IMG/VR virus record: IMGVR_UViG_3300042549_004128
Location: 1-27,365 of that record
Origin: a virus
Lineage: Duplodnaviria > Caudoviricetes
DNA: 27,365 nt
Direction: 5' to 3' (one strand)
Shown: piece after piece, positions 1 to 27,365 of the stretch
Position numbering within the stretch: the first letter of the stretch is position 1
How the letters are laid out: each line of letters begins with the position of its first letter
Notes under the pieces: generated by a model
Told to the model about the DNA's origin: nothing
The model's input: only the letters and a program-made list of their open reading frames with translations
Databases searched by the model: none
Position numbers and translations under genes: made by a program

Positions 1-655
1 CGTCTGTTCCAGTCGTAATCGTGAAAGACCCCTTTGAAAGGACCTCTGGGATAGGTTTTACAGACTTTACAGGAGTTACTGGATTACCTGCAGACAGACC
101 ATTTGCGGCCACCGCAGACACGCTGAATTCTTTGCCCTGCGGTCCGACAATCGTAATGCCATCATTAAGGACGGTAGCCGTGTACCCGCCAGTTAGACCT
201 GTCTTAACATAATTCAGGAATCCATTGATATTGACATGGGAGGGTCGGAATATGCCAGTAACCCAATCATCTACGATTACTCCATCGTAAAAAGCGTAAC
301 GATTGCCGTCTGAAAACTCTGCGATGACGAACGGCTTTCCGCTGTAGGTCGTGAAAGACACCAACTTTGTCATCGGAAAGATGGTGTCTGGGTGCTGCAG
401 TCGTCGATACTGAATCGGAGACGGAACAGACAGATTCTGGCTTCCGAAGGTGAACAGTTTATTACCGCAAACATTCAGGCCAAAAGTGCCCGCTGGCAGG
501 GTCCTGTATAACTCGAAAATCTTACGCTTCTCTACCTCTCCGCCACGAGTCACATGGGCGTTACGCAATTCCACCACAGACCCAGGCTTGGAGGTAAGGA
601 TATGCCGCCTCGTATCGAGCCCGCCTACGAAGTTCTCGATTACAAGATAGGCCAT
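1..655 (-). CDS. Tail nozzle / tail tubular protein B-like (N-terminal part; runs off window start)
   Basis: Not in the ORF track. ATG at 655 directly after the adaptor stop; open to the window edge: MAYLVIENFVGGLDTRRHILTSKPGSVVELRNAHVTRGGEVEKRK... The 'NF.GG....N......G...KR' start and the position after the adaptor fit podovirus nozzle proteins. Confidence 0.75.
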   Translation of the reverse strand, partial: MAYLVIENFVGGLDTRRHILTSKPGSVVELRNAHVTRGGEVEKRKIFELYRTLPAGTFGLNVCGNKLFTFGSQNLSVPSPIQYRRLQHPDTIFPMTKLVSFTTYSGKPFVIAEFSDGNRYAFYDGVIVDDWVTGIFRPSHVNINGFLNYVKTGLTGGYTATVLNDGITIVGPQGKEFSVSAVAANGLSAGNPVTPVKSVKPIPEVLSKGSFTITTGTD

Positions 656-656
656 A

Positions 657-1352
657 TCAAGGGTTGGGGTTCGGCATACGACCGCCAATCAGGCCGTGGT
701 TGTGGTCATTATTGATAAGACCGCCGCCAAAACGCACGATTTCGTTCTTAGAATTGAGGCCACGGAGGCGTGAGTAATGAGCATTGGCAAGGCCAAGTTT
801 GGCGGGAGCATCCGCAGACTTGGTATTGGCAAGCATTTCAGACGCAGCGTACAGGACAATCAACTTGTCATCCAGTTCACAGACATCCGTGTCCATGACC
901 AGAGGTTTGAGTTTCCTGATGCCAGACACCCGCAGGATGGAGTTAGACGCAGGAATCGGCCAGACTTCCAGCATGTTTTCCTCGTAATGACGCCACTTAA
1001 GCGGAGGGTCCTGCTTGATGCCGTCGTCGGAATCCATGAAGTTGTAGTCCTTCAGGTTCAGGCCAGGAATCACGGGACGCCAAGAAGCGGCGTACTTGAC
1101 ATTGGTGCAGATGATTCGGTCGTACGCAATCTGGGCGGGGAAGGCGTAATAACGCTGACCGTCCACCAGATTGATGTCTCGGTCAATCATCATGTTGGGC
1201 CAGTCAAAGTCGTACCATAGTCGCTCCTGCGTACGCTCAAGCAGCGTATTCATCGCATGGTGGGCGTTGGTCCCCATGGCAGGATTAGGAGAGGCACCGA
1301 TTTCTGCACGGAGCCTGTCCCGAAGGAGCGACAATGTTACGCCAGAGGCCAT
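657..1352 (-). CDS. Head-tail adaptor / tail tubular protein A-like
   Basis: 231 aa with 'TLSLLRDRLRAEIG', 'DGQRYYAFP' and 'LEVWPIP'; typical size and position between capsid and nozzle genes. Confidence 0.75.
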   Translation of the reverse strand: MASGVTLSLLRDRLRAEIGASPNPAMGTNAHHAMNTLLERTQERLWYDFDWPNMMIDRDINLVDGQRYYAFPAQIAYDRIICTNVKYAASWRPVIPGLNLKDYNFMDSDDGIKQDPPLKWRHYEENMLEVWPIPASNSILRVSGIRKLKPLVMDTDVCELDDKLIVLYAASEMLANTKSADAPAKLGLANAHYSRLRGLNSKNEIVRFGGGLINNDHNHGLIGGRMPNPNP

Positions 1353-1702
1353 CAGTTATTCATGAAGTTTTCGTCAACGGAAGCCTTCTTGAACTTCTTG
1401 ACCTTGGTGGGCTCAGGTTCGACGGCGACATCATCGATGCCGATATCAATCAGCAACTTAGGGAGGGACGGATTCGCACCAGGGAACGCCTTGGCGACGA
1501 CATCACGACCATAGATGTCAGACAGACGCTTGAGTTCAGAGGCGTTGTTGATGACATTCTCGCCTTCCAACTTCATGTTCGTCACGGAGCCAACGCCGTG
1601 GAGGGCGGACAGCAGGACGATTTCAGGGACGGAGATACCAGCCTTGACGACGGTGTTACCCATGTCTCCGCCGATAAGGATTTCGCAGGTTACGGTTTGC
1701 AT
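1352..1702 (-). CDS. Small hypothetical virion-associated protein
   Basis: ORF directly downstream of MCP; probable start MQTVTCEIL at 1702; stop overlaps the adaptor start. Confidence 0.7.
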   Translation of the reverse strand: MQTVTCEILIGGDMGNTVVKAGISVPEIVLLSALHGVGSVTNMKLEGENVINNASELKRLSDIYGRDVVAKAFPGANPSLPKLLIDIGIDDVAVEPEPTKVKKFKKASVDENFMNN

Positions 1703-1740
1703 AGGACCTCTAATCAATGGGACTCAGACAGAAAGACAAC

Positions 1741-1766
1741 AAAAAAGGGGTCCCTTTCGGGACCCC
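1741..1766 (-). terminator. Rho-independent terminator after the major capsid gene
   Basis: Minus strand reads GGGGTCCC-GAAA-GGGACCCC followed by TTTTTT, 24 nt after the MCP stop. Confidence 0.9.
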
Positions 1767-1789
1767 CTGTATTTGTCTGTCAGACAGGT

Positions 1790-2836
1790 TTAGGCAACCT
1801 GGTAGACGGCACACCCGTTCAACTGGGTGGCGGCCATGCCACCAGTCCAGGTCATCGCACGGTAGATGACATACTGGTCATGCGGGCGGGCAGGGTTGTG
1901 GGTCTTCTTGTCTTCGCCGTCCATGACATACAGGTTGATGTTGGACTCATCGATGAAGTAGATGTAGTCCGACTTACCGAGGCTGTCGAGGGTGGGGTCG
2001 TAGACGAAGCGACCGACGCCACGCATGTGGATGTCAGCCATGCCGAGTTCCGTGGAGCCTTCCTTCATGAAGCCCGTCTGGGTGTAGGTACCCTTTTCGG
2101 TGATTTCGGCCTCAAGCAGAGCAAGGGCGGTCGAACCACAGAAGATGAGGGTAGGCTTACCACCGAAGCGGGTCAACTGGCGGACTTCAGCACGGAGGAA
2201 CTTCGTCAGCGTCTGGTTGGCAGGGCTGGAGATAATCTTGTTCGCACCAGTAGCCGAACGGTTACGCCAAGCGGCGACATTCGCACGGTTGATACCGCCG
2301 ACGGTGCCGACAGACGGATTGTCCGTGATGAAGTGCGTAACGCCCGTGATGAGTTTCGGGTCAGCGGTGCCGTCGCCCCAGAGCATCTCGTTGAACGAGC
2401 GAGCCCAGCCTTCGGTCATGTCAGCCAACTTGTGTTCCAGAAGACCCGTAAGGGCCGTCATCTCACGGTCGGAGTGCTTGGAGGTGGACGCACCAGTCGT
2501 GCTGTCGGTAACGGAGATACCGTCATGCTTGAGTTCCGTCAGGGAGACGGTGATACCAGCATGGATTTCCTTCCAGTTATATTCGACACGCTTCAGGTTA
2601 GCGGGGTTGTCGTAGGTGACGGTATCGAGGTGCGAGAAGCCCTTGATAGCGGTCGTGTAATCAAACACAACGGGGATGCTGATTTTACCCTTACCACCAG
2701 GGAAGGACTTCTGCTTCTTGGTAAGAGCAGCGAGAAGGGGCTTTTCCTGGATGGTCTGGGAAAACGGCTTCTGCTTGATGTAAAAATCAAGGGCAGCGGC
2801 AGCAATGTTTTCGAGTTCGGCGGTAGTGAAGGCCAT
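1790..2836 (-). CDS. Major capsid protein
   Basis: 348 aa with strongly biased codons; follows scaffold and portal and has its own terminator; MAFTTAELENIAAAALDFYIK...PHDQYVIYRAMTWTGG resembles HK97-fold podovirus capsid proteins. Confidence 0.88.
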   Translation of the reverse strand: MAFTTAELENIAAAALDFYIKQKPFSQTIQEKPLLAALTKKQKSFPGGKGKISIPVVFDYTTAIKGFSHLDTVTYDNPANLKRVEYNWKEIHAGITVSLTELKHDGISVTDSTTGASTSKHSDREMTALTGLLEHKLADMTEGWARSFNEMLWGDGTADPKLITGVTHFITDNPSVGTVGGINRANVAAWRNRSATGANKIISSPANQTLTKFLRAEVRQLTRFGGKPTLIFCGSTALALLEAEITEKGTYTQTGFMKEGSTELGMADIHMRGVGRFVYDPTLDSLGKSDYIYFIDESNINLYVMDGEDKKTHNPARPHDQYVIYRAMTWTGGMAATQLNGCAVYQVA

Positions 2837-2856
2837 AGTAGTAGTTAGTAGGTAGG

Positions 2857-3885
2857 TTAGTAGCGTGAAGCCGCAGTCCGAACGACATCGAGCAATGTCT
2901 TGGGCTGAGGCTGGGCGGAGACGGATGAAGACGAACTCGTCATGACGGTCTGAGAACGACGGGGAATGAACGACCGCATGCCCTCATTGACATCCGCATA
3001 TGCTCTTTCGACCATAGCGATTGCCTCCTGAGTGCTGTTGGGAGTTTCATTGCCAATCATGACACGGACTTTATCCATGATGAACTTCTGCTTCGCTGAA
3101 TAATCGGGGTCACGCTGTTTGATGTTACTTTCCCATGCCATAACCGCATCACGGACCTGCGTCTGCTTTGCGTTGTATTCCTGATTCTGTCGTTCAACGA
3201 CACCCAGTTGCTGCTGTTGAGCAAGTAGGTTCGCTTGTGCCCTGGCTTTCGCCAGTTCTTTTGCGGACTCGATGTCCACATCTCCGTTGTCTACCCTCCG
3301 TGAAATATCTTCGGGAAGGCTTTCTCCAACAATCGGTGCCAATCGTGACAGATGGCCAGACAGAACCTTATACGCCTCGACGGGGTTGTGCTTAAGCAAC
3401 GACATGACCTGAAAACCTTCCGCCACCTCTTGAGGTGAGAGTTGGTTCTTGACCATGTATTGTTCAACCTTGTCATACTGTTCCGCACGAGACTTAAACG
3501 AGTCCCGTTCAGACAGCAGTTCTTTCCATCGAGGATGGTTGTGGAAAGGTAAAACTTCGGCCTTCGGGTTACCAGAAGCGTCATCCTTGACCGCTTTAAC
3601 TCCAGTAGCCGAATCCTCGGTAGTGACCTTGTCATTCACCGCTAGTGACGAATTAGCGTCGGGTTTAGCCTTTACGACGCCTTTGATGACATCGAGTAGG
3701 CTTGCCCGCTTATTAGCGTCAGTCTCCGCAGCAGACGAGGCTTGCGGCACATCATTAGCGTCTGAACTCTGGCTCGTGTCTGCAGACTGTTGGCTCGCAA
3801 CAGTTTGTGCAGAGGATTCCTGAGTTCCGTAGTTTTCGGTATCGGCAGCAGACGGGGCTGCCTGAATGTTATCGTCGGGTTCCAT
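2857..3885 (-). CDS. Capsid scaffolding protein
   Basis: Low-complexity acidic N-terminus, 'PFHNHPRWKELL' motif, coiled-coil character, position between portal and MCP; probable start MEPDDN at 3885. Confidence 0.75.
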   Translation of the reverse strand: MEPDDNIQAAPSAADTENYGTQESSAQTVASQQSADTSQSSDANDVPQASSAAETDANKRASLLDVIKGVVKAKPDANSSLAVNDKVTTEDSATGVKAVKDDASGNPKAEVLPFHNHPRWKELLSERDSFKSRAEQYDKVEQYMVKNQLSPQEVAEGFQVMSLLKHNPVEAYKVLSGHLSRLAPIVGESLPEDISRRVDNGDVDIESAKELAKARAQANLLAQQQQLGVVERQNQEYNAKQTQVRDAVMAWESNIKQRDPDYSAKQKFIMDKVRVMIGNETPNSTQEAIAMVERAYADVNEGMRSFIPRRSQTVMTSSSSSVSAQPQPKTLLDVVRTAASRY

Positions 3886-3930
3886 TGGGAAATTTACTGT
3901 CTGCAGACACGCAGACAAAGCAAGACATAA

Positions 3931-6054
3931 TTACATTCCAGGCGGAGCCGCATCAGTAGGGCGACCGCCAGGTGACCCAGGGGCCTGAGTCGGAGACGGT
4001 GCGTTCTGTGCACCCTGAGGCCCCTGGGAGTTGGGGTTATTCAAGCCGTTGGCACTATCATCAACCGCACTCGCCTTGGCGTTGGCATTCGTAGCCACGA
4101 TAGACGGGATGGTAGCGATGATGATGTCCTCGGGCTCAATACGGTCGTCCAGACGGCGAAGCGTCTCACGAGCAAAGAATTCAGGGGAGATGCCAGGAAT
4201 CTGCATCAGGATAGGAGCCAGACGCTCCCAGTTCTGGATTTCCGACGCTTTGTTGGGTCGGCCAGAGGAGCCAGCCTCGATGTCAAGGTATAGGGCTTCA
4301 GCGATTTCATTGCGGCTAAACTGAGGCCAGACAGCCCCAGGACCTACAACTTTTAGGACAAACTCCTGAGAGAACTCCTTAAGCATGACCGCACCAGCCG
4401 CACGGCAGATAGCCCCAAGGAACTCGTCAAGGTCGTCAACATTAGAACCGACCGCAGACATGCGGCTAGACTCAGCCACAGACACTTCGGTAGCCGTAGT
4501 GCCAGAGGCGGCGGTTCCGCCGATATTAGCCTCTTGAGAGCCAAGAATCCGAAGCGTGTCATCCACGAGCATGCTTGTGTCGTACAGAGAAGGGTCGATG
4601 GCTACGGGCTTGATTTGCTGAAGGACGGATTCCACGCCCTGACCAGGCTGAAGGCCACGCAACTCTATGATAGAATGCGGAGGACGCTCAGACAGATTGG
4701 TCTTGTCAGTAGCGTCAAGCATGCCAAACGGAACCGCATAAGCAGGTCGGTTAGCATGACGGTGTTCACGCAGTCCCTCACGGGCACGGTTATACTCCAG
4801 TTGAACAGGACGGAGAAGTCGGACATCGGATTGGGGATAGATTTCCTTTTCGTTTTCAACTTCATTGAAGACAAGCGGGTAGATGGGCCAGAAGCCCTCA
4901 AGGTCGGGCCATGGAGATTCGGGCTCCTGCAGGAAGTCGTGGTAGCCATCAACGACGACATACTTCATCTTGTCTGACTTGGAATAGATTTCCCAGACAA
5001 CACAGTTGTCATTCTGCTCGGACGAAGAATGGTGACCGACATTACGATTCTCCATGTACGAGGTAAAGGTCTTACCAAGGTCAACCTTGTAGACTTCCTT
5101 GACCGCCTCAGGAGTCATGATGAACTCCTGACAAATCCAAGCGGCACCAAGGAACGAAGAAAGGTGTCTGCACTTAGGGTCAACGATGATACTGGTAGCA
5201 GGGGGGAAATCGAACACAACGCCTTCACGAACAAGGACTTCAGGCTTAGACTGAAGGTCACGCATCATCAGTTTTAACTGCTCAGATTCAGGTGCGTCAG
5301 GCTTAAGGGTGTTATCTTCGATGTCTTGAGTGATACGCTCGATGCTGGTCAGTTGCTGCGTGATATCACGAATCTTGTCCGCATCTTCAGGGCGGGCTTC
5401 GGTGACACGCTCAAAGCCGACCTTTACGAAACCGACGCCCGTCACGCAGACACGGCGGACCAACTGCTTCATCTGAGCCTTGAAGTTAGGCTGCTGCTCA
5501 TGAATAACATGGGCGAATAGGATTTCCATGGTCTTGGCGACCTTGTCCAGCATCACTCGCTTCTGGGAACCCTGGCTGAAGTCCTGCATCAAAGCCATAC
5601 CTTGAGGGTCAGGTGGCATGCCCTGCTGGGCAGACATCGCAGACATGGCTTGGGCCTGTTGCAGCGTGGCTGAAGTCCCGTCCCATAATGCAAACTCAAG
5701 TCGCTTCTTACGCTTGGCCGTGGCTTTCGGATTCTTGCAATAAAGAGCCGCAACACGCTGGGCAATATGCCGTTGCGTAATGTTTGCGGTGTAGCGGTCT
5801 TCATCCATGGTGCCGCCAGCCCATTGCTTGCCAGACACGAAATCCATGTCTTCACGCATACGGGCGAACGGACGCTTCCAATGGTTCTTAGCGGCAATGA
5901 CCTTCTTACACCACTCCTTGACAAGCGTGGCACGAGCCTCGTCAGGCTTCGGAGTGTCACGGCGGATACGGCCTTCGCCATCAGGTTGACCCATCATCGG
6001 GTTTTCCCCAGGCATCGGCATGCCACCCATGTTCATCATGTCGTCAGGTTCCAT
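3931..6054 (-). CDS. Portal protein
   Basis: 707 aa directly after TerL; 'MREDMDFVSGKQW', 'TATEV', 'LDIEAGSSGRPNK' and a P/Q-rich tail, as in P22-like portals. Confidence 0.9.
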   Translation of the reverse strand: MEPDDMMNMGGMPMPGENPMMGQPDGEGRIRRDTPKPDEARATLVKEWCKKVIAAKNHWKRPFARMREDMDFVSGKQWAGGTMDEDRYTANITQRHIAQRVAALYCKNPKATAKRKKRLEFALWDGTSATLQQAQAMSAMSAQQGMPPDPQGMALMQDFSQGSQKRVMLDKVAKTMEILFAHVIHEQQPNFKAQMKQLVRRVCVTGVGFVKVGFERVTEARPEDADKIRDITQQLTSIERITQDIEDNTLKPDAPESEQLKLMMRDLQSKPEVLVREGVVFDFPPATSIIVDPKCRHLSSFLGAAWICQEFIMTPEAVKEVYKVDLGKTFTSYMENRNVGHHSSSEQNDNCVVWEIYSKSDKMKYVVVDGYHDFLQEPESPWPDLEGFWPIYPLVFNEVENEKEIYPQSDVRLLRPVQLEYNRAREGLREHRHANRPAYAVPFGMLDATDKTNLSERPPHSIIELRGLQPGQGVESVLQQIKPVAIDPSLYDTSMLVDDTLRILGSQEANIGGTAASGTTATEVSVAESSRMSAVGSNVDDLDEFLGAICRAAGAVMLKEFSQEFVLKVVGPGAVWPQFSRNEIAEALYLDIEAGSSGRPNKASEIQNWERLAPILMQIPGISPEFFARETLRRLDDRIEPEDIIIATIPSIVATNANAKASAVDDSANGLNNPNSQGPQGAQNAPSPTQAPGSPGGRPTDAAPPGM

Positions 6055-6068
6055 TTGCGGGAAAGTAG

Positions 6069-7667
6069 TTAAAAACCTCCAAAACGCAATAGGTTTTGTC
6101 TGCGTCGCTCATCGCCAGACGCTTGCTTAAGCCAACCCATGGTACCCGTGGCAAACCCCTCGATTTTCTTGATGACAGGATTGCGACCGCTGAACTGCTT
6201 GCTCAGGCCAAGGCCGATGTATGCCAGAGCATCGACGAAGTCATCATGCTTGGCTGCGGGGAACTTAAGGAGTTCCTGTTCAGCGTCTTGCATCCAAGGA
6301 GCGAACCGAGGGAAGTGCACCTTCCCCATGGCCATACGGCCACGAATTGCCTGGGCTCGTGTCTGCTTGTCCTTGGCTGGGGTGACCTCGTCGATAGCCC
6401 CGTAGGTGCTACGCTCTTGCATACGCTTGCGTAGGAATGGACCGATAGACTTGGAGATATGCCCCTTTTCCGCCCACCAGAGCATTGGCTTAAGTCGCTC
6501 CATGATGTCAATCATCGCCTCCACCACTTCGTCGGTCTGCTCCCGTCGCCACCAGACATCTGGCAGAATCCAGATGTCATCGTTCTCGTCCACCCCTACG
6601 GGAATCAGACAGGTTGCGTCACGGTCTTGGTCCATGGACACGGCATGGTCAGATGCCACATAGATGGTCAGGGCTTTTGGTAATTCAGATGGATTGTAAT
6701 ACTTAATCCAGTCCTTTTTGAAAAAGTCGCCGTCTTCAGGGGCGGGTGAGCCTTGGTACAGGGATGCAAAGCCTCGTGGGTTTAATGACCGTGCTCGCTC
6801 AAGAAAAGGGACATCAAACCGTTCTGGCCACAGGGCCTCCCCAGGCTGTCTGCCCATCGGGTCATCTCGGACAGCCAGGGCTGGCAAAGATAGAATCTTC
6901 CAATGCTTGGCTTCTTCCTCGTTGTAGTAGCCATTGGTCGGGTCAATCAGGCGGCCAATCAGGTCATCCTCGTGCCAGCGGGTCATGATAATGACCACTC
7001 GGCTGCCCACAGACATCAGGCGTGTCATGGCCACATCGGTGAACCAAGCCCACATCTTGTCACGGGTAGCCTTGGATTCAGCCTCCTCACGGTCCTTGAT
7101 TGGGTCATCGATGACCAAAAGGTCAGCACCACGGCCAGTCAGGGAGCCACCACGGCCTACGAACATGGCCTGACCGCCCTCTTTTGTCTGCAGCATCTCG
7201 GCAGAAGCAGACCCCTTGCGGAGTTTGGCGGTCGGAAATAACTGTCTGTAGACTGGCATCTGCACGATTTCACGGACGGCACGACCGAAATCCTTAGCGG
7301 TGTCCTCGTTGTAGGTCGCAAAGATGGTATGGCGGTAGGGGTCCTTGCCCATGAACCACGCAGGAAAGCGACGAGATGCCAGTTCAGACTTACCGTGTCT
7401 GGGAGGCATCGTGATAATTAGCCGCTGAATCGTACCCTTCTCCACCTCCTCAAGTGCAGCCGCAATCACCTCATGGTGCTTGCATGCCGTGTATCGGCTC
7501 CTGTCTGTGTTCTCAGGGTCGTCTGGGTCTGGCAGCGTCAACTTAGTGAACTCAAGCAGACTGTTCCGTCCACGCTTGATGGACAGAAGACGCTTGGCCG
7601 CACTAATCCTTTTCAGGTGTGCGGCTTGGGCGTTTTCGGCTGTCTGCTCTGGGTTGTCGTCAGACAT
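6069..7667 (-). CDS. terL: Terminase large subunit
   Basis: Walker A 'MPPRHGKSE', 'LTGRGADLLVIDDPIK', 'MTRWHEDDL' and nuclease 'HDDFVDAL'; probable start MSDDNP at 7667. Confidence 0.97.
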   Translation of the reverse strand: MSDDNPEQTAENAQAAHLKRISAAKRLLSIKRGRNSLLEFTKLTLPDPDDPENTDRSRYTACKHHEVIAAALEEVEKGTIQRLIITMPPRHGKSELASRRFPAWFMGKDPYRHTIFATYNEDTAKDFGRAVREIVQMPVYRQLFPTAKLRKGSASAEMLQTKEGGQAMFVGRGGSLTGRGADLLVIDDPIKDREEAESKATRDKMWAWFTDVAMTRLMSVGSRVVIIMTRWHEDDLIGRLIDPTNGYYNEEEAKHWKILSLPALAVRDDPMGRQPGEALWPERFDVPFLERARSLNPRGFASLYQGSPAPEDGDFFKKDWIKYYNPSELPKALTIYVASDHAVSMDQDRDATCLIPVGVDENDDIWILPDVWWRREQTDEVVEAMIDIMERLKPMLWWAEKGHISKSIGPFLRKRMQERSTYGAIDEVTPAKDKQTRAQAIRGRMAMGKVHFPRFAPWMQDAEQELLKFPAAKHDDFVDALAYIGLGLSKQFSGRNPVIKKIEGFATGTMGWLKQASGDERRRQNLLRFGGF

Positions 7668-7677
7668 CAAAAATGAA

Positions 7678-10965: not shown

Positions 10966-11340
10966 TCGATGTCTGAAAAAATCTGCTCGACATTTTGGAG
11001 GTGATTGGGCAAAACAGTTTTCGCCATGCCAAAAACCGCATCCCAAAACGCCCCGCTGACCCCTCTGGTCATCGGCCTCACCCAAAACCCGACCCCTGTC
11101 TGTCGCTGTCAGACGCCTCAGGTCACCCACCCACCCCACAGCCCCAGCCACCAGCCCGCTGGAAATCAGACGGCGGAACCGACTCCTTCCCCTATGGGGA
11201 ATGTGAACGGTTCGCCCAGCAACGGTTCGCCGTCTGAACCTTCCCACGAGCCCACCCCCAGCCACCAGCCCGCCCAGCCCACGGAGCCTTCGGCTCAGAC
11301 GGCCCCCAATTCCACCCCCCAAAATTCCACCCAAAATCCC

Positions 11341-12531
11341 ATGCCCAACATCCCACCAGCCCAGCCCCAGCAGCCCGCCACCCCGAACCTCAAGGCTTTA
11401 GCCTTGGAAGCCTTAATCGGCCCTCGGGGAACCATCAAGCCGTCCTCTGGACGGAATGGTAACAAGAACCTCATCAAGAAGTGGCTCACCGAGAAAGGCG
11501 TAGCCTTTTCGGTGTCTGGTTGGGCCACGGTCAAGGAACTTGGTGCTGTCTATAATGACACTACTGACACCATCCTGAATCAGATGCTTCAGAAGTCTTC
11601 GACTTCTGCCCAGCCCAATCAGCAGAATCAGCAGACTCAGCAGACTCCGTCTGCCCCGACCGCCCAGCCCACGACCCCTCAGACAACTCCGTTGTCTGTT
11701 CCGACTCCCAAGACCCCGAAGACGGCGAAGCCGATGAAACATGCCCTTCACGACGAAGTCGTGGAAGTGATGTCTGTCGGTCTGAATGCCTTTGTCTTCG
11801 GCCCTGCTGGAAGTGGTAAGACCACTTTGGCTGGTTCGGTCGCTAAGTCCTTGGGACTTAGGCTGTTCATGACAGGAGCAGTCCGTAAGGACTTCAAACT
11901 GTTCGGTTTCATCGATGCCCATGGCAACTATCGGTCTACGACCTTCCGAGATGCCTTTGAAAACGGCGGTCTGTTCCTGTTCGATGAAATCGATGCCTCA
12001 GACAGCGGTGTCCTTCTCCAACTGAATGCGGCCTTGGCAAACGGAGTTTGCGACTTCCCCGATGCCACCATCAAGGCTCACCCTGATTTCAGGGTGATGG
12101 CTTCAGCCAATACCAACGGTGACGGTGCTACTGCATCTTATTCGGCAAGACAGTTGCTGGACGGTGCTTCTAAGGACCGATTCATGACCTTCACTTGTGA
12201 CTATGATAACAGTCTGGTGAAGCAAATCGTGGCGGACATGTGCAAAAATCCTACGGATTTGGCTGTCTGTCTGGATTGGAATGACGATGTCTGTCTGATT
12301 CGCAAGTTGGCTAAAGCCAACAGCATCAACCTCATCCTCAGCCCCCGAGCCACCTTCATGGGAGTGAAACTCCTGACGAATCCGAATCGCAAGGTCTTTA
12401 AGACCAAGGCCGATTTGATGGATGGCCTTGTCTGGAACAAACTGTCTGACGAAAATACCCGAAAGCGTCTCAAGGGCCTCTTTGAGGCCGAGAAAGCCAA
12501 GGCCATCGTCACCCCCGCTGTCACCGCCTAA
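11341..12531 (+). CDS. MoxR/CbbQ/CobS-like AAA+ ATPase with N-terminal extension
   Basis: Walker A GPAGSGKT, Walker B FLFDEID, 'HPDFRVMASANT', 'LDGASKDRF', 'LSPRAT'. The frame is open back to 11005/11026, but 11341 has the typical C/A-rich leader. Confidence 0.9.
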   Translation: MPNIPPAQPQQPATPNLKALALEALIGPRGTIKPSSGRNGNKNLIKKWLTEKGVAFSVSGWATVKELGAVYNDTTDTILNQMLQKSSTSAQPNQQNQQTQQTPSAPTAQPTTPQTTPLSVPTPKTPKTAKPMKHALHDEVVEVMSVGLNAFVFGPAGSGKTTLAGSVAKSLGLRLFMTGAVRKDFKLFGFIDAHGNYRSTTFRDAFENGGLFLFDEIDASDSGVLLQLNAALANGVCDFPDATIKAHPDFRVMASANTNGDGATASYSARQLLDGASKDRFMTFTCDYDNSLVKQIVADMCKNPTDLAVCLDWNDDVCLIRKLAKANSINLILSPRATFMGVKLLTNPNRKVFKTKADLMDGLVWNKLSDENTRKRLKGLFEAEKAKAIVTPAVTA

Positions 12532-12600: not shown

Positions 12601-13557
12601 ATGTCTAACGACCAACTCAAGGACCTCATGGTCCTTCCCAAAGAGCGACAGACGGTCAGTCTGTCTGAAGGTGTCCGTCTCACTTCGGAGTTCAAATCCA
12701 TCGGTGGATTTGTCCTGCTGGAAGCAGACAGCATCGAAAAGTATCTGGCCTTCCAGACCGTCTTCGACGGTAAGGCTACGGGCCATGAACGGCATTCCCG
12801 AACCAACTCTGCCTCCAAGTCTTGGGACTTGAATACGGGTTGGGAAGGCCACCAGAAGATTCTGGTGGAAGGCTGGAAGGCTGGTGTTGACGGTCTAAAG
12901 ACCGCCCAAGCCACCTTCCCTTCGACAGGTTCCTTCGGAAAAATCCCAGACAGCGACATTGCTGGAGGTTCGCTTTGCGTAGCAACTTACTGCTCTGGTG
13001 CTCCAGACTACTACGATGTAGACCCCGAGGAAGACAGCCTTGGTTCCACCAAGGTCATCAAGTTGGTGGTTCCTGTCGGTGCTACTGCTGGATACTCTGC
13101 AGAGTATCTGTTCAATCGTGGTGCTGGAATCGTGGCGGCAATCCAAGCAATCGAACGGTCTGGAAAGCAATGTGAGGTCTGGGCTGAATCTGCGGCCACG
13201 ACCTCTGGTCAGCCAATCTGTCAGCGTGTCTTAATCAAGTGGGCTGGTTCTCCTCTTGACCTGAATACGATGGCTGTCTGGTTGGCTCATCCTGCCACCT
13301 TCCGACGACTGTTCTTCTCTGGTCGAGAATGTCTGTGGAATTTCCAGACCCCTGTGGGGTCTGTCAGACACATCCTCGGCGGAGACTACGGTTCGACCTG
13401 TCAGGGTCCTACGGACAAGATGTCTGAAGGCACTATCTACTTGCCTCTGGCAAGAGACGGTAACTACGGCACTCCCAAGGCGGCCCTTCAGACTCTGTCT
13501 GAAATCTTCAAGTCCGCTGGGTTCTCCTTGGACTTCGGTGACCTGAGCAGCATGTAA
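12601..13557 (+). CDS. vWA/CobT-like partner of the AAA+ ATPase (degenerate MIDAS)
   Basis: 318 aa next to the AAA+ gene; 'IKLVVPVGATAGYSAE..NRGAGIVAAIQAIERSG..CEVW' and 'HPATFRRLFF' resemble phage vWA-like partners. Confidence 0.65.
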   Translation: MSNDQLKDLMVLPKERQTVSLSEGVRLTSEFKSIGGFVLLEADSIEKYLAFQTVFDGKATGHERHSRTNSASKSWDLNTGWEGHQKILVEGWKAGVDGLKTAQATFPSTGSFGKIPDSDIAGGSLCVATYCSGAPDYYDVDPEEDSLGSTKVIKLVVPVGATAGYSAEYLFNRGAGIVAAIQAIERSGKQCEVWAESAATTSGQPICQRVLIKWAGSPLDLNTMAVWLAHPATFRRLFFSGRECLWNFQTPVGSVRHILGGDYGSTCQGPTDKMSEGTIYLPLARDGNYGTPKAALQTLSEIFKSAGFSLDFGDLSSM

Positions 13558-13617
13558 GGACGAAACAGACACCCTTCGGGGTGTCTGTCTTGCGGTGAAA
13601 CCGCAACTGATGAGTCC
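13558..13617 (+). ncRNA. Hammerhead ribozyme, type II (HH1), GUC cleavage after 13589
   Basis: GGAC-GAA-ACAGACACCC-UUCG-GGGUGUCUGU-C-UUGCGG-UGAAA-CCGCAA-CUGAUGA-GUCC: all core nucleotides present with three perfect stems. Confidence 0.96.
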
Positions 13618-13637
13618 ATCAGACAACTTTTCCCACC

Positions 13638-17857: not shown

Positions 17858-17864
17858 TACGAAC

Positions 17865-18356: not shown

Positions 18357-18366
18357 GAACCAGACA

Positions 18367-18438
18367 GGACGAAACAGGCAGACGCAACAGGCATGGTGCG
18401 TCTGTCTGTATCTGGGTGAGGCCCAGACTGACGAGTCC
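18367..18438 (+). ncRNA. Hammerhead ribozyme, type II (HH2), GUA cleavage after 18410
   Basis: GGAC-GAA-ACAGGCAGACGCA-(10 nt)-UGCGUCUGUCUGU-A-UCUGGG-UGAGG-CCCAGA-CUGACGA-GUCC: intact core, one G-U pair in stem III. Confidence 0.95.
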
Positions 18439-18489
18439 CTCGCAGAGACAACTTTCACCCCCAACCAAAAACCAAACAACCAGACAGAC

Positions 18490-18705: not shown

Positions 18706-18712
18706 GACAGAC

Positions 18713-19201: not shown

Positions 19202-19202
19202 A

Positions 19203-20533: not shown

Positions 20534-20953
20534 TTAGTTGTGGAGGTGAAAGTTGAGTCTTATTAACGCCCGTTGTTTCACGGGCGGGGCCAGACGAGGA
20601 TTGAAGCCGATGGCCTTGAAGCCAGCGAACCCCATCGAGTAAGACAGATAGACATGCTGCGGGGTCGCAGCAACCCCAGATTCAGACAGACGCTTCATGT
20701 GCCAAGCCAGCAGCCAGCGGGCGATTTCCCGATGCTGGTCGGGCGTGGCCTTCTGTCTATTGATTCGTGTTTGATTATGCGAGGCCCTGAAGTCGTTTGC
20801 TGTCTGCCAAGCCGACTCCCAGACCTGCCACGCTCCGATGGCCCTGCCGCCATCTCCTATGGCTTCGTGTTTGAAGTTGGACTCCGTCCGTGCGACCGCA
20901 TCGACGAAAGGTTCGGACGGCATGGCTACCGCCAGCAGTAAGACAGCCATCAT
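20534..20953 (-). CDS. Lytic transglycosylase / lysozyme-like protein with N-terminal hydrophobic segment
   Basis: 'AVARTES....AIGDGGRAIGAWQV' catalytic Glu motif and 'YLSYSMG'; start overlaps the upstream stop (ATGA). Confidence 0.78.
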   Translation of the reverse strand: MMAVLLLAVAMPSEPFVDAVARTESNFKHEAIGDGGRAIGAWQVWESAWQTANDFRASHNQTRINRQKATPDQHREIARWLLAWHMKRLSESGVAATPQHVYLSYSMGFAGFKAIGFNPRLAPPVKQRALIRLNFHLHN

Positions 20954-21108
20954 GACACGGGCCTCCACTTATTGCGGGCATACAGGGACGCCCACATGTC
21001 TGCCGTCTCCTTGCCGTGGAGCAGGACGACCTTCTTCTCATGGGGCGTCAGCAGTTTGAGGCCAGCCTTCAGGATTTCTGGCCTACGCTTCTTCGTCTTC
21101 TTTGCCAT
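20950..21108 (-). CDS. Small basic protein (52 aa; not in ORF track)
   Basis: MAKKTKKRRPEILKAGLKLLTPHEKKVVLLHGKETADMWASLYARNKWRPVS; fills the gap and its stop overlaps the next start. Confidence 0.6.
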   Translation of the reverse strand: MAKKTKKRRPEILKAGLKLLTPHEKKVVLLHGKETADMWASLYARNKWRPVS

Positions 21109-21307
21109 CGATGTATTTGTCTAGTTGTCTGTCGATATACTCGCAGTTGTTCTTGAGACGCTCAACCTCCAACTTCAGGCAAGCGACTTCGTGTTTGAGT
21201 TTCTTGTTCTCCGCCCCGAGGTCACGCCCGAGGTAGCCGAGTTGCAGGATGCTCTTGGCGAAGCCCTCGATGATGCCATCCCGATAGTCCTGAGGTAGTT
21301 CAGACAT
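21083..21307 (-). CDS. Hypothetical coiled-coil protein (74 aa)
   Basis: Start MSELPQDY overlapping the end of the upstream gene. Confidence 0.7.
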   Translation of the reverse strand: MSELPQDYRDGIIEGFAKSILQLGYLGRDLGAENKKLKHEVACLKLEVERLKNNCEYIDRQLDKYIDGKEDEEA

Positions 21308-21524
21308 GACGCTTGGGTCCCATCTGGGGTTTGGGCACGGGTGCGTTGTGCTTCTTGACCCATCGATACAGGCGATTGCGTCCGATTTTCTCACGGTCTT
21401 CGACCGCCCGAATCGAGCCAATCCGCAGGGCCGACTCGTAGAGAGCCCGCATCCATGAGTATTGGAGGTCGGGGGCCAAAGCCTCGAAAGCCTTGGACTG
21501 TCTGGTTTTTTTATTCTTGTTCAT
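21300..21524 (-). CDS. Small basic, possibly HTH DNA-binding protein (74 aa)
   Basis: Start MNKNKK; 'GSIRAVEDREKIGRNRLYRWVKKH' is HTH-like. Confidence 0.6.
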   Translation of the reverse strand: MNKNKKTRQSKAFEALAPDLQYSWMRALYESALRIGSIRAVEDREKIGRNRLYRWVKKHNAPVPKPQMGPKRHV

Positions 21525-21714
21525 TTTGTATGTCGAAGGTGTTGTTCTGGAGGATTGCGAATTGGTCAGTCCGCATGTGTCTGATGACGCCGTCCTTTTC
21601 CATGACCACGGCGAAGATGTCATTGCTCCAAGTGCCGCCGTCACGGACATACATCAGCCAGCCATAGCCGATGTCTGTCTTGACGGGGATGGGGTTTCGG
21701 AACTCGTGAATCAT
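21511..21714 (-). CDS. Conserved phage hypothetical protein (67 aa)
   Basis: MIHEFRNPIPVKTDIGYGWLMYVRDGGTWSND...; ATGA overlap with the primase-helicase stop. Confidence 0.75.
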   Translation of the reverse strand: MIHEFRNPIPVKTDIGYGWLMYVRDGGTWSNDIFAVVMEKDGVIRHMRTDQFAILQNNTFDIQNEQE

Positions 21715-24002
21715 TTGATTTGGTTGATGCGTTTGGTCTGGTTGTCGTAGACGAACCTGTCCCAATGCGGGACATCGAGGTAGGCCCCCGAAGACAGTTC
21801 GGCTCCGTCGCTGTCAGTAGCGTAGGTCCCTGTCGGGATGTCCAGCCACTTCTTGTCCTTGGTCCCCTTGGCCGCACAGGCCACGAGCCCTTCACGCATC
21901 ATCATCTTGGATACGAGCGTGTCGAATTCGTGTGCCCCTGTCGTCTGCAGGACCTTGGGCAGTTCCGAGCGTCTGCGATACAGGCCCGACTTGGCGTTCT
22001 TGCCTTCGATGGAGTAGGGGTGACCGCACTCCGCCGCATGCTTGACGGCGAACAGGAGCCATGCTTCTCGCTCGCCCATGTTCACGGCGTTGAAGATGTC
22101 TCGCTCCGTCACATCGCACAGGAGGCCAGACGGCTGTCTGAGCAGGGACATTTCCGAGTCCAGCATCTCAGGGTTGTTGGCCTTGATGACGGCCATTTTC
22201 CAGAGGTGGTGACGCTTCGGCGGGATGCCCATGCCAGACATGCGGCGTTCGTAGTCAGACGCATGCCAGATGCCGATGACGGAACGGAAGGCGGCGGGCA
22301 ACGCAGACGAGCCACGGACGGCGGACTTCATGTCATCCACGCTACGGATAGGCTCCTCGCCCTGCTTGCGGATGTGGTGGGTGATGATGAGGGCCGAGCC
22401 GAGTTCACCGCAAATCTGGCTGGCGACACGGATGAACTCGTTGATGATGGTGGCCGAGTTCTCCTCGCCGTGCATGACCGAGTTCAGGGTGTCGATGACG
22501 ACCAGACGCAGGTCTGGCAGTTTGCGGAGGTGGCCCATGAGTTCGACCCACTTCTTGGACGGTCTGGCCTCCTGTGTCTTAGGGTCCTTCTCCACCAAGG
22601 CGAAGGCTCCGCCCGTGTTGATTAACGGGAGGATGATGAGTCTGTCTGCGGCTGCGAAACGCATGCCCTCTGGGTCGATTTCGTTCAGACGGATGTGCAG
22701 TTCGTCTTGGTCGTCTTCGGTGGTCACGATGACCGCCGTTCCGCCCTGCTTCACATCCTTGCCGCACCACTTCTGCTCACCGCAGACACCATGGCATGCC
22801 ACCTTCAGGGCTAGGTCGAGCATCAGGAATGTCTTACCCGCACCGCCTTCGGCCACGAGCATCTGGTGTTTGCCCGCCAAGATGAGCCTGTCTACGAGGA
22901 ACTTGCGGGTAGGCGGGTCGCCCGCAGACCAGCGGTGTGCCGCCCACGCCAGCAGACCTTCGCCCGTGTCGTTCTGGACGAGAGGCTTGTCTGGCTCTGG
23001 GACAGGGCCATGGGCCGTGATGTCCTTACGGAAGATGGCGTTGAACTCCTTGATGCTCCGAGGCAGGGGCCACGGCGGGACCATATGGGTGTCTACCCAG
23101 CCGATGGTCCGTTCAAGGGCCTCCTGCTCCGTCAGTTCATTGCGTCTGACCGCCGAGATGAACATGCCAGCGACACGGCTGAACTGCGACCAGCGTGTCA
23201 TGTCGCCTTCGCCACCTTCGTGGACGGTGTCCAGAAGGTTCAGAGCCCGAAATTCCCCCTGCACGCCTTCGGCGGAGGGGGCCTTCGTCTTGCGTTCCAC
23301 GGCTTGTCCAGCCAGCGGGACCATCTGTCTGATTGTGTCTGCGACATGCTCTGGGGCGTACGCAGCGTCCTCCATTCGTTCACGGATTTCTACCAGCGTC
23401 ATCTTGCCGTTCTTGCCATGGATGGAGCCAGCCAGACGGATGGGCTGGTGGGCCCGACCGTACGGATTCCCGTCCGTTCCGATTCCGAACTGCGGGTCGC
23501 CTCCGATTTTGGAAGCCAATTCGTGTCTGATTTGGACGACCTCCTGCGGAGTGCCGACCCTTCGGGCGAGCGAAATGTACGCATGGAGTTTGTCATGGCC
23601 CTGCTCTGTCTGACCGCCTGAGGCGACGACCATGGACGGCTCGATGCCAGACTTCCTGACATGCTCGATGCCAGACCACGGGTTACCGCTGTCGATGTCC
23701 ACGCAGACGGTATCGAACCGTAATACATTGTTTGACTTGGCTTCGGGCTGGCTGAAAACGGCGGGCACGATGAATGAGCCGATGCCGTGGGCGGACCAAC
23801 GCAGGACATGCTGGTAGATGACTTGGTCGAGTTTGTCTGGGCAGTCGAGGGCGGGCTGAATCATGATGTTCTCAGCGAACACGCCCTCCTTCTCCGTGCC
23901 CTTCTCGCCGATGCCACGGATGCACACCCACTCCCCTTCGGAGAAAGGCGTCTTGAACAGCAGACCGAGGTGGTCGCTGACGCTCTTGAATAGAGGTGTC
24001 AT
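21711..24002 (-). CDS. Primase-helicase: RepB'-like primase domain plus RepA/AAA_25 helicase
   Basis: N-terminal 'VCVDID', 'VVASGG...KLHAY', 'IRLAGSIHGK'; C-terminal Walker A 'AEGGAGKT', 'LVVIDT', 'THHIRK', 'RGSSAL'. Confidence 0.88.
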   Translation of the reverse strand: MTPLFKSVSDHLGLLFKTPFSEGEWVCIRGIGEKGTEKEGVFAENIMIQPALDCPDKLDQVIYQHVLRWSAHGIGSFIVPAVFSQPEAKSNNVLRFDTVCVDIDSGNPWSGIEHVRKSGIEPSMVVASGGQTEQGHDKLHAYISLARRVGTPQEVVQIRHELASKIGGDPQFGIGTDGNPYGRAHQPIRLAGSIHGKNGKMTLVEIRERMEDAAYAPEHVADTIRQMVPLAGQAVERKTKAPSAEGVQGEFRALNLLDTVHEGGEGDMTRWSQFSRVAGMFISAVRRNELTEQEALERTIGWVDTHMVPPWPLPRSIKEFNAIFRKDITAHGPVPEPDKPLVQNDTGEGLLAWAAHRWSAGDPPTRKFLVDRLILAGKHQMLVAEGGAGKTFLMLDLALKVACHGVCGEQKWCGKDVKQGGTAVIVTTEDDQDELHIRLNEIDPEGMRFAAADRLIILPLINTGGAFALVEKDPKTQEARPSKKWVELMGHLRKLPDLRLVVIDTLNSVMHGEENSATIINEFIRVASQICGELGSALIITHHIRKQGEEPIRSVDDMKSAVRGSSALPAAFRSVIGIWHASDYERRMSGMGIPPKRHHLWKMAVIKANNPEMLDSEMSLLRQPSGLLCDVTERDIFNAVNMGEREAWLLFAVKHAAECGHPYSIEGKNAKSGLYRRRSELPKVLQTTGAHEFDTLVSKMMMREGLVACAAKGTKDKKWLDIPTGTYATDSDGAELSSGAYLDVPHWDRFVYDNQTKRINQIK

Positions 24003-25081: not shown

Positions 25082-25287
25082 TATTTCTTAGAAGTGATTC
25101 GCTTGTATTCATAATACGCTTCGCACAGGTGCAACAGCGTTTTCGGGTCCACGCAGATGGTCTGCGAGCCGCCTTCTTCCATGTGTGCGGAAAGCGTGGC
25201 CGACAGTTCGGCCACATGCCTGATGTATTCTTCTTCTGCGATAGGCTTCTTAGGAACCTTATCTTCGTTGATGTTTTTCGGTTTCAT
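25081..25287 (-). CDS. Hypothetical protein (68 aa)
   Basis: Start MKPKNINE; stop overlaps the exonuclease start. Confidence 0.65.
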   Translation of the reverse strand: MKPKNINEDKVPKKPIAEEEYIRHVAELSATLSAHMEEGGSQTICVDPKTLLHLCEAYYEYKRITSKK

Positions 25288-25298
25288 GGGAGGATAAA

Positions 25299-26933
25299 TT
25301 ATAGGTTGTGAATGGCTTTGGCAATGCGTTCCTCGTTGAATTTCCAAGTCAGCCGACAGGTGGCGGAGTAGCGGTTGACGGAGGAAATGAAGCCAAGGCC
25401 GAGCATCTGCTTCTGTCTGTCTGTGGCGGGTAGCCGTAGCCAAGACTTGGACTTACGGGCGAAGTCACGGTCGCCATGCTCACGCATGTAGTCATCGGCG
25501 GAGGCTATGCACGGAACCCGTGCATCCGAGCGATTCAGGACACGGACCTTACCTTTGGCGACGGAGCCCAATGCGACGAATCCGTCGTTTACGGCGACGA
25601 CCACGGCCCACGCAGACAGGGCGGAGCAGACAGACGCCGCACCATCCCAGAGCGTCTCCCAGCGGAAGGGGCTGGCCTCGATGATTTCGACTTCGGTCAT
25701 GGCAAACCTGTCCAAGGCTTCCCGTTCTTCGCCTTCGGGCTTGCCGACCTTGATGTAGGCGTAGCCGCAGACAGGACATTCGGTCAGCCACGCAGGGTGC
25801 AGCGTCTTGCAGTTCGGGCATTCGATGGGGGCGGCCTCCCGCTTCTCCTTCTCGATAATCTCCGTGCTGGCATCGATGTCGCCGTGTGTCAGGATGCTGT
25901 GGCCGAAGTCCATTATCAGACAGTCAGATTTGACCACATGCGGGTATCGCTCGGGGTCAAGTTTGCGTAGCCCACGCCCAATCATCTGAATCATGGTGCT
26001 TTTGTGGCTACACGGCCTGAGCAGGATGACGCAAGACACGGGCTGGCAGTCCCAACCTTCGGTCAGGACGGCCACATTGACCAAGACCTTGAACTTCATC
26101 TGGTCGAAGGCATGCAGGGTGGCCCGTCTGTCGTTGTCTGCCATGGCCCCGTGGACGACACGGGCGTCGATGCCGTTGGCCGTAAACTCTGTCGTGATGT
26201 CTTCGGCGTGTTTGACCGTGCTGCAGAAGATTACTGTCTGTCTGTCTGACGACTTCTCTTTCCATTCCCTGCAGACAGCCTGGTTTACCACCTGCTTATT
26301 CATGATGGCCTCGACCTCAGACATGTCGAAATCATTGGCCGTCTTGCGGACTTTGGACAGGGAGTCGCCCAGCCCAAGGTTGATTACGAAGGTGCGGGGC
26401 CTGACGAGATGGCCTGAGATGATGAGTTCAGACAGCGAGATGGAGTCGCAGACATTGCTGAAGACGGACTGCAGCCCTTGGCTGTCGCCACGCTGCGGCG
26501 TAGCCGTGACCCCGAAGATGCGAATCTTGGGGTTTAGTTCCTTGGCCCGATTGATGATTTTCTGGTAGGAGTCGGCGGCCACATGGTGGGCTTCGTCGAT
26601 TACCAGCATGTCGAACGCTGGCATCTGGGCGAGGGTGTTGTCTCGGCAGAGTGTCTGGACCATGGCGAAGGTGCTTGGCCCGAACGCCTTTTTGTCAGCG
26701 TTACAAATGACGGCCTTTCGGCCAGTTATGTTAACAAAGGTCGCCAAGTTCTGGTTGACGAGTTCGTCTCGGTGCTGGATGACCAGCACGGAGCCGTCGT
26801 GGTCGGCACAGACAGCAGACAGCATGACAGTCTTGCCAGCCCCAGTCGGGGCGATGGCAATCGTGTTGCGATGTTCTTTGAGGGCCTTACTTACCCGTCC
26901 GACCAACTCTTGTTGGCGAGGTCTAAGAATCAT
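25299..26933 (-). CDS. SF2 DEAH helicase (RadD/YejH-like) with Zn ribbon
   Basis: 'LRPRQ', 'APTGAGKT', 'IDEAHH', 'TATP', 'LTEGWD', 'QMIGRGLR', CPNC...CPVC; start MILRPR. Confidence 0.95.
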   Translation of the reverse strand: MILRPRQQELVGRVSKALKEHRNTIAIAPTGAGKTVMLSAVCADHDGSVLVIQHRDELVNQNLATFVNITGRKAVICNADKKAFGPSTFAMVQTLCRDNTLAQMPAFDMLVIDEAHHVAADSYQKIINRAKELNPKIRIFGVTATPQRGDSQGLQSVFSNVCDSISLSELIISGHLVRPRTFVINLGLGDSLSKVRKTANDFDMSEVEAIMNKQVVNQAVCREWKEKSSDRQTVIFCSTVKHAEDITTEFTANGIDARVVHGAMADNDRRATLHAFDQMKFKVLVNVAVLTEGWDCQPVSCVILLRPCSHKSTMIQMIGRGLRKLDPERYPHVVKSDCLIMDFGHSILTHGDIDASTEIIEKEKREAAPIECPNCKTLHPAWLTECPVCGYAYIKVGKPEGEEREALDRFAMTEVEIIEASPFRWETLWDGAASVCSALSAWAVVVAVNDGFVALGSVAKGKVRVLNRSDARVPCIASADDYMREHGDRDFARKSKSWLRLPATDRQKQMLGLGFISSVNRYSATCRLTWKFNEERIAKAIHNL

Positions 26934-27101
26934 CTGAAAAGGGGGTGCCTTGAAGCAGAGGCTTCCCAAAAAAAGCGTACTTCATTAGGCTGTCTGAGTT
27001 CATAGAGGAAACCGAAAAGAACCCCTATGGTTCACCAGCCGAGGACTATTGGTTAAGGTTTTAATGCTTAGTCTTTGGGAAACCAAGCACATTCTTCGGG
27101 A

Positions 27102-27365
27102 TTAGAAGGGGCCGTTCGGCTTCGGGGTAGACAGGAAGGAGGGCTTGCCAGACAGCGAACTGCCGACCGAGCCACCGCCACCCATCACCTTCTTGAAGTT
27201 CTCCGAGGTGCCGCTTTCAGGGTTCGGGCTGAGGAAGTCGGTCACGCTGTTCTTGTCAGAGAAGCCGCCTGTGCCCGCCTTGATGCCGACCTTGATGGCG
27301 ACCGTCTGACCGCTGAGGGCGGCGATGAGGGCCTCAAGGTTGGCGAACTTGCCATAGGAAGCCTC
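27102..27365 (-). CDS. ssDNA-binding protein-like, C-terminal part (truncated by window end)
   Basis: Open frame ...LSGQTVAIKVGIKAGTGGFSDKNSVTDFLSPNP...KPNGPF*; flexible tail ending PF; position upstream of the helicase. Confidence 0.6.
   Translation of the reverse strand, partial: EASYGKFANLEALIAALSGQTVAIKVGIKAGTGGFSDKNSVTDFLSPNPESGTSENFKKVMGGGGSVGSSLSGKPSFLSTPKPNGPF

Follow-up and report, generated by a model that had tools for sequence, protein, structure and literature searches.

The tailed phage analyzed here (Duplodnaviria; Caudoviricetes) is represented by the IMG/VR virus record IMGVR_UViG_3300042549_004128, and the window, which is the entire record of 27,365 bases, is densely filled with the short word CAGAC(A) and its complement (T)GTCTG. 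Across phages this word varies together with a small N-terminal domain of a MoxR/CobS-type AAA+ ATPase, and the ATPase therefore likely binds the word. We propose the domain, a putative binding module, as the likely reader of CAGAC(A)(G), with a probability of about 0.6. Four observations form the basis of this proposal: the enrichment of the word, the conservation of its silent positions, the turnover of its sites, and the co-variation of word and domain.

Enrichment of the word and conservation of its silent positions

CAGAC was found 153 times and GTCTG 154 times in the window (307 sites), and CAGACA/TGTCTG was its commonest hexamer with 93 and 101 copies, i.e., 194 sites compared to 33 expected from a second-order Markov model. 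The copies amount to about 11 per kb on both strands, with a mean gap of 89 bases and a longest gap of 678. The original prediction had described the enrichment from manual counts, and the local counts match, with 18 sites in 15961-16980, 13 in 10337-11340, 13 in 25300-26300 and 9 in 1-600; the 2 sites per kb that it took as the expectation were too lenient. Its count of about four in the major capsid protein gene (1790..2836, minus strand; PHROG 9953) was also reproduced, as this gene has 4 sites and 3.2 are expected under the null, which is no excess. The 153 and 154 copies of the two orientations are in line with the reported absence of clear strand polarity.

The preferred form of the word is CAGACA(G), with AAGACA, TAGACA and CAGACG as weaker members. 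The information is confined to 6 to 7 bases, and the flanks do not extend the word into a palindrome, so that it is asymmetric. No general depletion of its single-mismatch neighbours was seen. The only clear peak in the spacing of sites is a 4-base overlap (23 pairs), and apart from this peak neither phasing nor fixed inverted pairs of sites were detected. The overlapping run described earlier near 26236 is present.

Synonymous codons were shuffled within genes over 21,789 coding bases, and the excess persisted under this codon-preserving null, the check that had been called for: CAGAC occurred 100 times compared to 43 in the shuffles, GTCTG 133 compared to 58, CAGACA 62 compared to 10, and TGTCTG 73 compared to 20. 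Since restriction-type sites are strongly avoided in the window (ACGT, AGCT, CCGG, GATC and GCGC are absent and CGCG occurs once), a null in which 13 avoided words were forbidden was also built. The values changed little (CAGACA 62 vs 10.4, TGTCTG 74 vs 24.2), and in four of four genomes the hexamer was 2 to 6 times above the forbidden-word codon null on each strand. The density of the pentamer is 7.7 per kb in structural, 14.3 in early and 10.5 in replication genes, and its excess over the null is about 2.3 to 2.5-fold in all three classes alike.

As previously stated, the word is found in different reading frames; every frame and both orientations are used (32/50/27 for CAGAC and 34/33/70 for GTCTG). 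The accompanying claim that it drives the codons of Asp-Arg pairs held in part. Arg following Asp (GAC) is encoded by AGR in 20 of 31 pairs, compared to 50 of 353 other Arg codons, but three of the five places cited read AAGACAGG and not CAGAC. The equal use of sense and antisense copies points to double-stranded DNA, rather than RNA, as the level at which the word acts.

A complete relative (G001; 46,685 bases with direct terminal repeats, about 90-96% identical), which also covers the part absent from the window, was used to follow the silent positions. Between the window and G001, 2 of 203 silent third positions within CAGACA/TGTCTG had changed, whereas 17.6 changes were expected from the same codons elsewhere, and the reverse comparison gave 1 of 199 compared to 18.3. 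For another pair of relatives, G003 and G004, 16 of 150 silent positions in hexamer sites had changed compared to 33.8 expected. Forty control pentamers were drawn, 18 to 25 of them with enough data, and they gave median ratios of 0.8 to 1.0 with a most extreme z of -2.8. The amino acids encoded at the sites were not conserved (104 of 240 changed, 99 expected). At longer distance, 48 of the 194 sites of G001 are at the same place in G002 at unchanged density. Conservation together with turnover is what would be expected of many weak sites that can replace one another. The excess over the codon null and the fewer silent changes inside sites thus support the earlier idea that selection acts on the nucleotide sequence itself, and biased repair could yield the same silent-site numbers.

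The N-terminal domain of the ATPase as candidate reader

The ATPase gene (11026..12531, plus strand; PHROG 249, E 1.5e-47; Pfam AAA_5) opens the presumed early block. Its start codon may be at 11026, 11197 or 11341. The product has AAA_5-type Walker A and B motifs, and its closest solved structures are midasin and CobS. The next gene (12601..13557, plus strand) encodes a vWA-like partner (DUF7192; Pfam E 6.4e-21; model with a predicted local distance difference test score, pLDDT, of 90), whose fold was assigned by Foldseek alone, with the VWA domain of NorD in NorQD complexes as best match (E 2e-4 to 5e-4, TM about 0.2-0.3). Its metal ion-dependent adhesion site (MIDAS) is degenerate; Pro, Gly and Thr stand in place of the canonical DxSxS, and Asp was found there in 15 of 63 aligned partners.

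The candidate reader itself (11401..11586, plus strand) was delimited by family alignment, profile, model and co-occurrence. It consists of about 60 residues between low-complexity linkers and was modelled as three to four short helices; the member from one carrier, L190, was modelled at pLDDT 85.5. A profile search retrieved 119 proteins among 1.84 billion, and 62 of the 69 with at least 350 residues contain the ATPase. No Pfam family names the domain in the 27 carriers scanned, a Foldseek search gave no match at E 0.001, and an Atlas search gave nothing. The best match in a wide fold search had a Z of 4.0, and those to the C-terminal domains of CDNF (Z 2.9) and T4 EndoVII (Z 2.8) and to YqbF (Z 2.7) were below the reliable level. 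Arg, Asn-Arg and Arg-Lys-Trp positions are conserved in 68-96% of 112 domains, with conserved basic residues in the first helix. These positions are compatible with DNA binding and do not show it. An aromatic residue after the first helix is Tyr or Phe in 7 of 9 AGACA-type domains and in 0 of 11 others, at a position that was chosen after the labels were known.

The distribution of the word was followed in 151 loci that had been retrieved through their capsid, terminase, helicase or primase; these loci overlap and in several cases come from one contig. The observed-to-expected ratio of the word was at least 2.5 in 30 of them and at most 2.0 in the other 121, including a short member of the window's clade (L077) with a 1.4-fold ratio, and the word was patchy among podophages. 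On a quick capsid tree, the positives were the window's clade and two separate lineages, represented by G006 and G007. All six further positives (G001-G004, G006 and G007) encode an AAA+ ATPase next to a vWA-type protein, and five negatives (G005, G009, G013, G015 and RHph_N65) have neither the ATPase nor the CAGACA excess. The ATPase of G006 belongs to another subfamily and was missed by the direct search, and it carries the same N-terminal domain together with the same word. These six genomes share no other non-core gene.

Viral loci were also retrieved solely on the basis of their ATPase (the 80 most similar of 184, from 14 of 64 parts scanned). CAGACA was the top hexamer in two of the 80, L190 (54 vs 10) and L203 (53 vs 15), both of which carry the domain, and a third carrier, L257, had AGACA and AGACAG on top in a codon-aware test. 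When the domain pattern was used for prediction, it led to three new phages (L274, L275 and L276) and two contigs (L281 and L282), in all of which CAGACA ranked first. On a terminase tree the positives are found in five places (the window's clade, G006, G007, G016/G021/L274, and G017). In the clades that are sister to the window, the ATPase is either missing or carries a diverged domain, in the latter case together with GACGCA. The search for a co-occurring DNA-binding gene that the original prediction had suggested thus yielded a candidate. Truncated ATPase genes, in which the N-terminal domain is kept and joined to the tail of another early gene, were seen at L276 9929-10468 and in protein P0008; the tail of P0008, for which there is no Pfam match, presumably resembles ArdA.

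Other modules were found with other words. Diverged versions of the window's domain accompany GACGCA, CGGACG or CCTGGAC. A distant member is encoded by the siphophages P106B and RHph_X2_24 (E 1e-5 and 6e-4), and CCTGGAC occurs 33 times in P106B (2.7 expected) and 25 times in RHph_X2_24 (3.0 expected), compared to 5 (7.9 expected) in 50 kb of an R. gallicum replicon and 11 (7.2 expected) in RHph_N65. For a related helical family, the ratio of GTTTAA was 3.3-11.6 in 19 of 19 loci and at most 2.3 in the other 61, with sites mostly outside called genes. L217, L247 and L209 have a common domain and TGACA (3.6, 2.9 and 1.6); the N-terminus of Mae-Yong1326-1 resembles this family by eye, and GGACA/TGTCC was counted there at 148 vs 81 and 151 vs 53. 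The word is CGGACG in G018 and CTTTAA in G020. A zinc ribbon is common to Faith1 and L256 (E 2e-13), with a similar one in Sephiroth by eye, and these carriers favour CCTTA, CTTAA or GCTTA. CTTAA occurs 204 times in Faith1 compared to 117 expected, and once in 26 kb of D29, a phage on Faith1's host, where 2 are expected. The host-side and same-host controls thus comprised two phages and a 50-kb stretch of one replicon. The ATPases of Staphylococcus and Listeria myophages had no such N-terminal module by eye, and 50-kb stretches showed no comparable word.

In an all-against-all comparison of 56 loci, the non-redundant set from 78 in which the ATPase was usable (kinship was not corrected for), the top word was shared at 40-60% ATPase identity by 14 of 70 pairs from the same domain family and by 59 of 1,238 pairs from different families. 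One of 5,000 label permutations reached the observed word-domain correlation.

Some further word biases were noted. Strong words were seen at two more ATPase loci, CTGAAG in L231 (32 vs 10, 17 vs 5) and GTAACA/GTTACA in L237, the latter with a Cys/His-rich N-terminus. TGCGTCA shows strand polarity in G008 1-14000 (L175) and clusters in the part of that genome with the replication and early genes, in contrast to the word of the window, which is found genome-wide. CCAGG and CCGGC are enriched about 2-fold or more in related phages (L153-L156 and L164-L167), and G013 is enriched in GCCGGC and GATCC; such a pattern suggests repair linked to host methyltransferases.

Several results weigh against the domain as reader. 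Three of the 10 domain-bearing loci among the 80 were enriched in (C)AGACA and four had other words, and many of the 80 ATPase loci had no clear word. The domain is present with no specific word in L202, L221, L227 and G024, and 13 loci, mostly short (L288-L300), have the same first helix and no CAGACA. Conversely, L220 has 10 copies (2.7 expected) and no domain. In G021 (96% complete) the ATPase domain and the vWA gene are deleted, the N-terminal domain is kept, and the word is at 4.3 times the expectation, so an intact machine is unnecessary for the presence of the word today; a recent deletion or an assembly error would account for this genome. The effect in the all-against-all comparison was small (mean r 0.038 vs -0.017), and the domain tree left 13 of 17 branches open. 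The likeness of the domain to several nucleic-acid-binding domains of the helix-extension-helix type was weak and below the reliable level, both for the Rho N-terminal domain (Z 3.8, root mean square deviation 2.6, 44 aligned residues) and for the C-terminal domain of T4 EndoVII mentioned above. Finally, the CAGACA-positive phages are mostly of one podophage family, so that part of the pattern can be due to common descent or to hosts that they have in common.

If the domain is the reader, the following mechanism may be considered, of which DNA binding by the domain, avidity of the ring and the pull on a client protein are the parts that we infer. The N-terminal domain would bind CAGAC(A)(G) and tether the ATPase and its vWA partner along the phage DNA. 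Through avidity, tethered domains in a six-membered ring would prefer phage DNA, which is rich in the word, to host DNA, and the ATPase/vWA machine would then pull on a client protein, as NorQ/NorD may be taken to illustrate. The word would serve as a self-address by which the ATPase finds the phage's own DNA. That the ATPase gene opens the early block and that restriction sites are heavily avoided suggests, but does not show, that the machine clears host proteins off incoming DNA. Given binding, a client among the host proteins on that DNA, e.g., a restriction, silencing or other defence complex, is our tentative first choice at somewhat less than even odds, and a role in early transcription or help in genome entry are the next options.

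A broader generalization is possible and is offered tentatively: many unrelated tailed phages may share a mode of self-recognition in which an early AAA+/vWA machine with a swappable DNA-reading module docks by avidity on a genome-wide 5- to 7-base word and strips host defence or silencing proteins, and genes annotated cobS would encode this machine. If so, the swappable modules would be helical, zinc ribbon or other, and unexplained word biases of phages could be assigned to their readers from sequence alone. If the domain binds the word, the widespread phage gene pair labelled as porphyrin/cobalamin (cobS) would be a DNA-addressed motor, and phages would gain a positive self-mark in sequence, not in chemistry. 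Studies of protein-DNA specificity would gain tiny domains that are naturally paired with their target words, and the system would offer a cause for silent-site conservation that phage recoding must respect. Cultured phages with predicted words are P106B on Rhizobium and Faith1 on Mycobacterium smegmatis.

Alternative readers and causes

The alternative that survives best, and that we still regard as unlikely, is that a host enzyme reads the word, either as a Chi-like signal for AddAB/RecBCD or as some other self-mark, and that the domain varies only through the host group. Host Chi sites do accumulate in phages according to the accessible part of one report (PMC12315714), and the word is short, asymmetric and present on both strands. 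The persistence of the word in G021, which lacks the ATPase, and the several domain carriers without the word would also fit. On the other hand, in the two cases with a named host the word was absent from the host-side and same-host controls, and there are sister phages with similar virion genes that have neither the ATPase nor the word. Moreover, the Chi-rich phages are described, in the portion of that report available, as having no recombination genes of their own (PMC12315714), whereas an AAA_24 ATPase is encoded in G001 and a Cas4-type exonuclease and RusA in the window; these probably form a recombination module.

Rather little weight is given to the idea that the reader is another phage protein travelling with the ATPase, either the vWA partner or the product of a small early gene, and that the N-terminal domain binds a protein client. 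A vWA-like gene is near the ATPase in 75 of the 80 loci, and MoxR ATPases usually act on proteins; in the accessible text of one study, p618, an ATPase of an archaeal virus, showed no binding to viral DNA (PMC4124505). However, G006 has the N-terminal domain in common with the window, but its ATPase is of another subfamily and no homologue of the window's vWA gene was detected in it, the domain remains in G021 after loss of the vWA gene, and no other non-core gene is common to G001-G004, G006 and G007. Further candidates were tried and rejected, among them the 3,121-residue virion protein of G001. The integrase is present in the negatives G005, G013 and G015 and was not found in the positive G006. 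A 163-residue early protein (17865-18356) is clade-specific and absent from G006 and G007, and its Atlas search gave nothing. The likeness of CAGACA to the Smad-binding element was not supported, as no such domain turned up in the scans.

It is scarcely probable that methylation-guided repair or another mutational bias makes the word with no reader at all, as was proposed for HIP1. The known HIPs are palindromic with matching orphan methyltransferases, as far as the available part of the source states (PMC4390886), and CAGAC(A) is not palindromic. The lower rate of change inside sites would fit biased repair, and the avoidance of many restriction-type sites means that the host probably has many methyltransferases, which counts for such a bias. 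However, no methyltransferase was found among 37 open reading frames of the window and 13 further G001 proteins scanned, nor when five positive genomes were checked with a crude test for motifs. The absence of a general depletion among single-mismatch neighbours and the persistence of the word across phages that avoid quite different sets of sites also count against a repair bias.

A primase recognition site, one of the readers named in the original prediction, is very improbable. GTC is the T7 primase triplet, and GTC or GAC lies inside CAGACA, GGACA, TGACA, GACGCA, CGGACG and CCTGGAC. The window's primase-helicase (21711..24002, minus strand; AAA_25) was tested as word reader and rejected: G005, G009 and G013 share this protein at 53% and lack the word, G016, G017 and G021 carry the word without any match to the protein, and the word has no strand polarity. 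A by-product of codon usage and restriction-site removal has practically no chance, since the avoided sites listed above do constrain codon pairs but the protein- and codon-preserving null with forbidden words leaves the 2- to 6-fold hexamer excess in all four genomes. Among the roles suggested originally, a site for a genome-coating or other DNA-binding protein therefore fits, now with a candidate reader named; the primase is unsupported, and a modification site finds no support in the gene content, although a host enzyme may act there.

Genome context and known systems

The genes on the minus strand of the window include those for capsid, portal, terminase, tail fibre, RusA, primase-helicase, Cas4-type exonuclease and helicase. 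The plus-strand block from 11026 to 19201, with mostly unknown products, probably comprises the early genes. The nearest cultured relatives by capsid are Mae-Yong1326-1 (47%) and RHph_N65 (40%), and one scan for prophage relatives in GTDB genomes gave a single distant locus, a Sneathiella prophage. The sets of avoided sites differ between close relatives, as G003 and G004 are without CTAG, GATC, TATA and ATAT. A repeated C/A-rich leader with TCACCC(A/C)CCCA is located directly upstream of seven early genes (15241, 15472, 15875, 16329, 16597, 17017 and 18456), often followed by CAGACA, and no Shine-Dalgarno sequence was evident by eye at these leaders. A tyrosine integrase and a Cro-like gene are kept in the window's clade (G001 20738-21964, L049), where no counterpart was seen of the divergent repressor-like gene that stands beside the integrase in G005 and G007. 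The 3,121-residue virion-module protein of G001 (L048 9638-19003) has no Pfam domain, and its equivalents in Mae-Yong1326-1 and G006 have LPD1 and ddrB-ParB domains.

Two hammerhead-type RNAs, both circularly permuted, are located between early genes. The first (13558..13628, plus strand) directly follows the vWA gene and matches RF02276 (hammerhead type II) with 29.9 bits (E 0.022), below the gathering score of 37; its fold has a z of -5.2, and one of its stems is a CAGACA/TGTCTG pair. The second (18367..18438, plus strand) was not reported by the Rfam scan. It has the core letters in its sequence, a fold z of -3.65, and stems that hold CAGAC/GTCTG. The word is thus found in the stems of both hammerhead-like RNAs, as had been claimed, and the abundance of both orientations would most simply account for stems built of it.

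No description of the word, nor of a link between phage CobS-like ATPases and a genome word, was found in full-text searches of a literature library with few subscription papers. The system shares features with several known ones. In Neisseriaceae and Pasteurellaceae, the uptake machinery of the cell reads DNA uptake sequences, words of 9 to 12 bases that occur in many interchangeable copies on both strands and within genes, where they bend codon choice. The window's word differs in its length of 5 to 7 bases and in having a phage-encoded candidate reader. In McrB and the sigma-54 enhancer-binding proteins, an AAA+ ring acting at DNA is likewise joined to a domain that reads sequence. McrB recognizes foreign DNA that is modified, on behalf of a nuclease, and the enhancer-binding proteins recognize a small number of promoter sites. 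We know of neither a vWA partner nor hundreds of own-genome sites for either of them.

NorQ/NorD, CobS/CobT, midasin and ATV p618/p892 provide the best structural or profile matches, and in them ATPase and vWA protein are likewise encoded together. To our knowledge, the known MoxR AAA+/vWA members remodel or load proteins, and none is DNA-addressed. The phage ATPases differ in their swappable N-terminal module, and the window's vWA protein in lacking a canonical MIDAS. In the part of the literature source at hand, MoxR/vWA pairs are described as ATP-driven protein remodellers (PMC4124505).

Chi-rich phages such as coliphage LLS and P1 have likewise accumulated a short asymmetric word genome-wide under selection, as the available portion of the report describes (PMC12315714). 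There, Chi serves a host enzyme and stands in for a missing recombination module, whereas here the word goes with a phage gene and varies with the N-terminal domain of its product, and the words of the relatives are absent from the tested host-side controls. The excess of GATC/GGATCC in B3 mycobacteriophages is also genome-wide, limited to one phage subgroup and without a resolved cause; those words are palindromic and no phage reader is named in the accessible text (PMC4841201), whereas the window's word is asymmetric. Finally, HIP1 and the alternate HIPs of cyanobacteria provide an iterated word that changes with a protein-coding gene between lineages, according to the part of the source available (PMC4390886). 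The HIPs are palindromes of cellular genomes tied to methyltransferases, whereas the word described here is asymmetric, belongs to phages and is tied to an ATPase domain.

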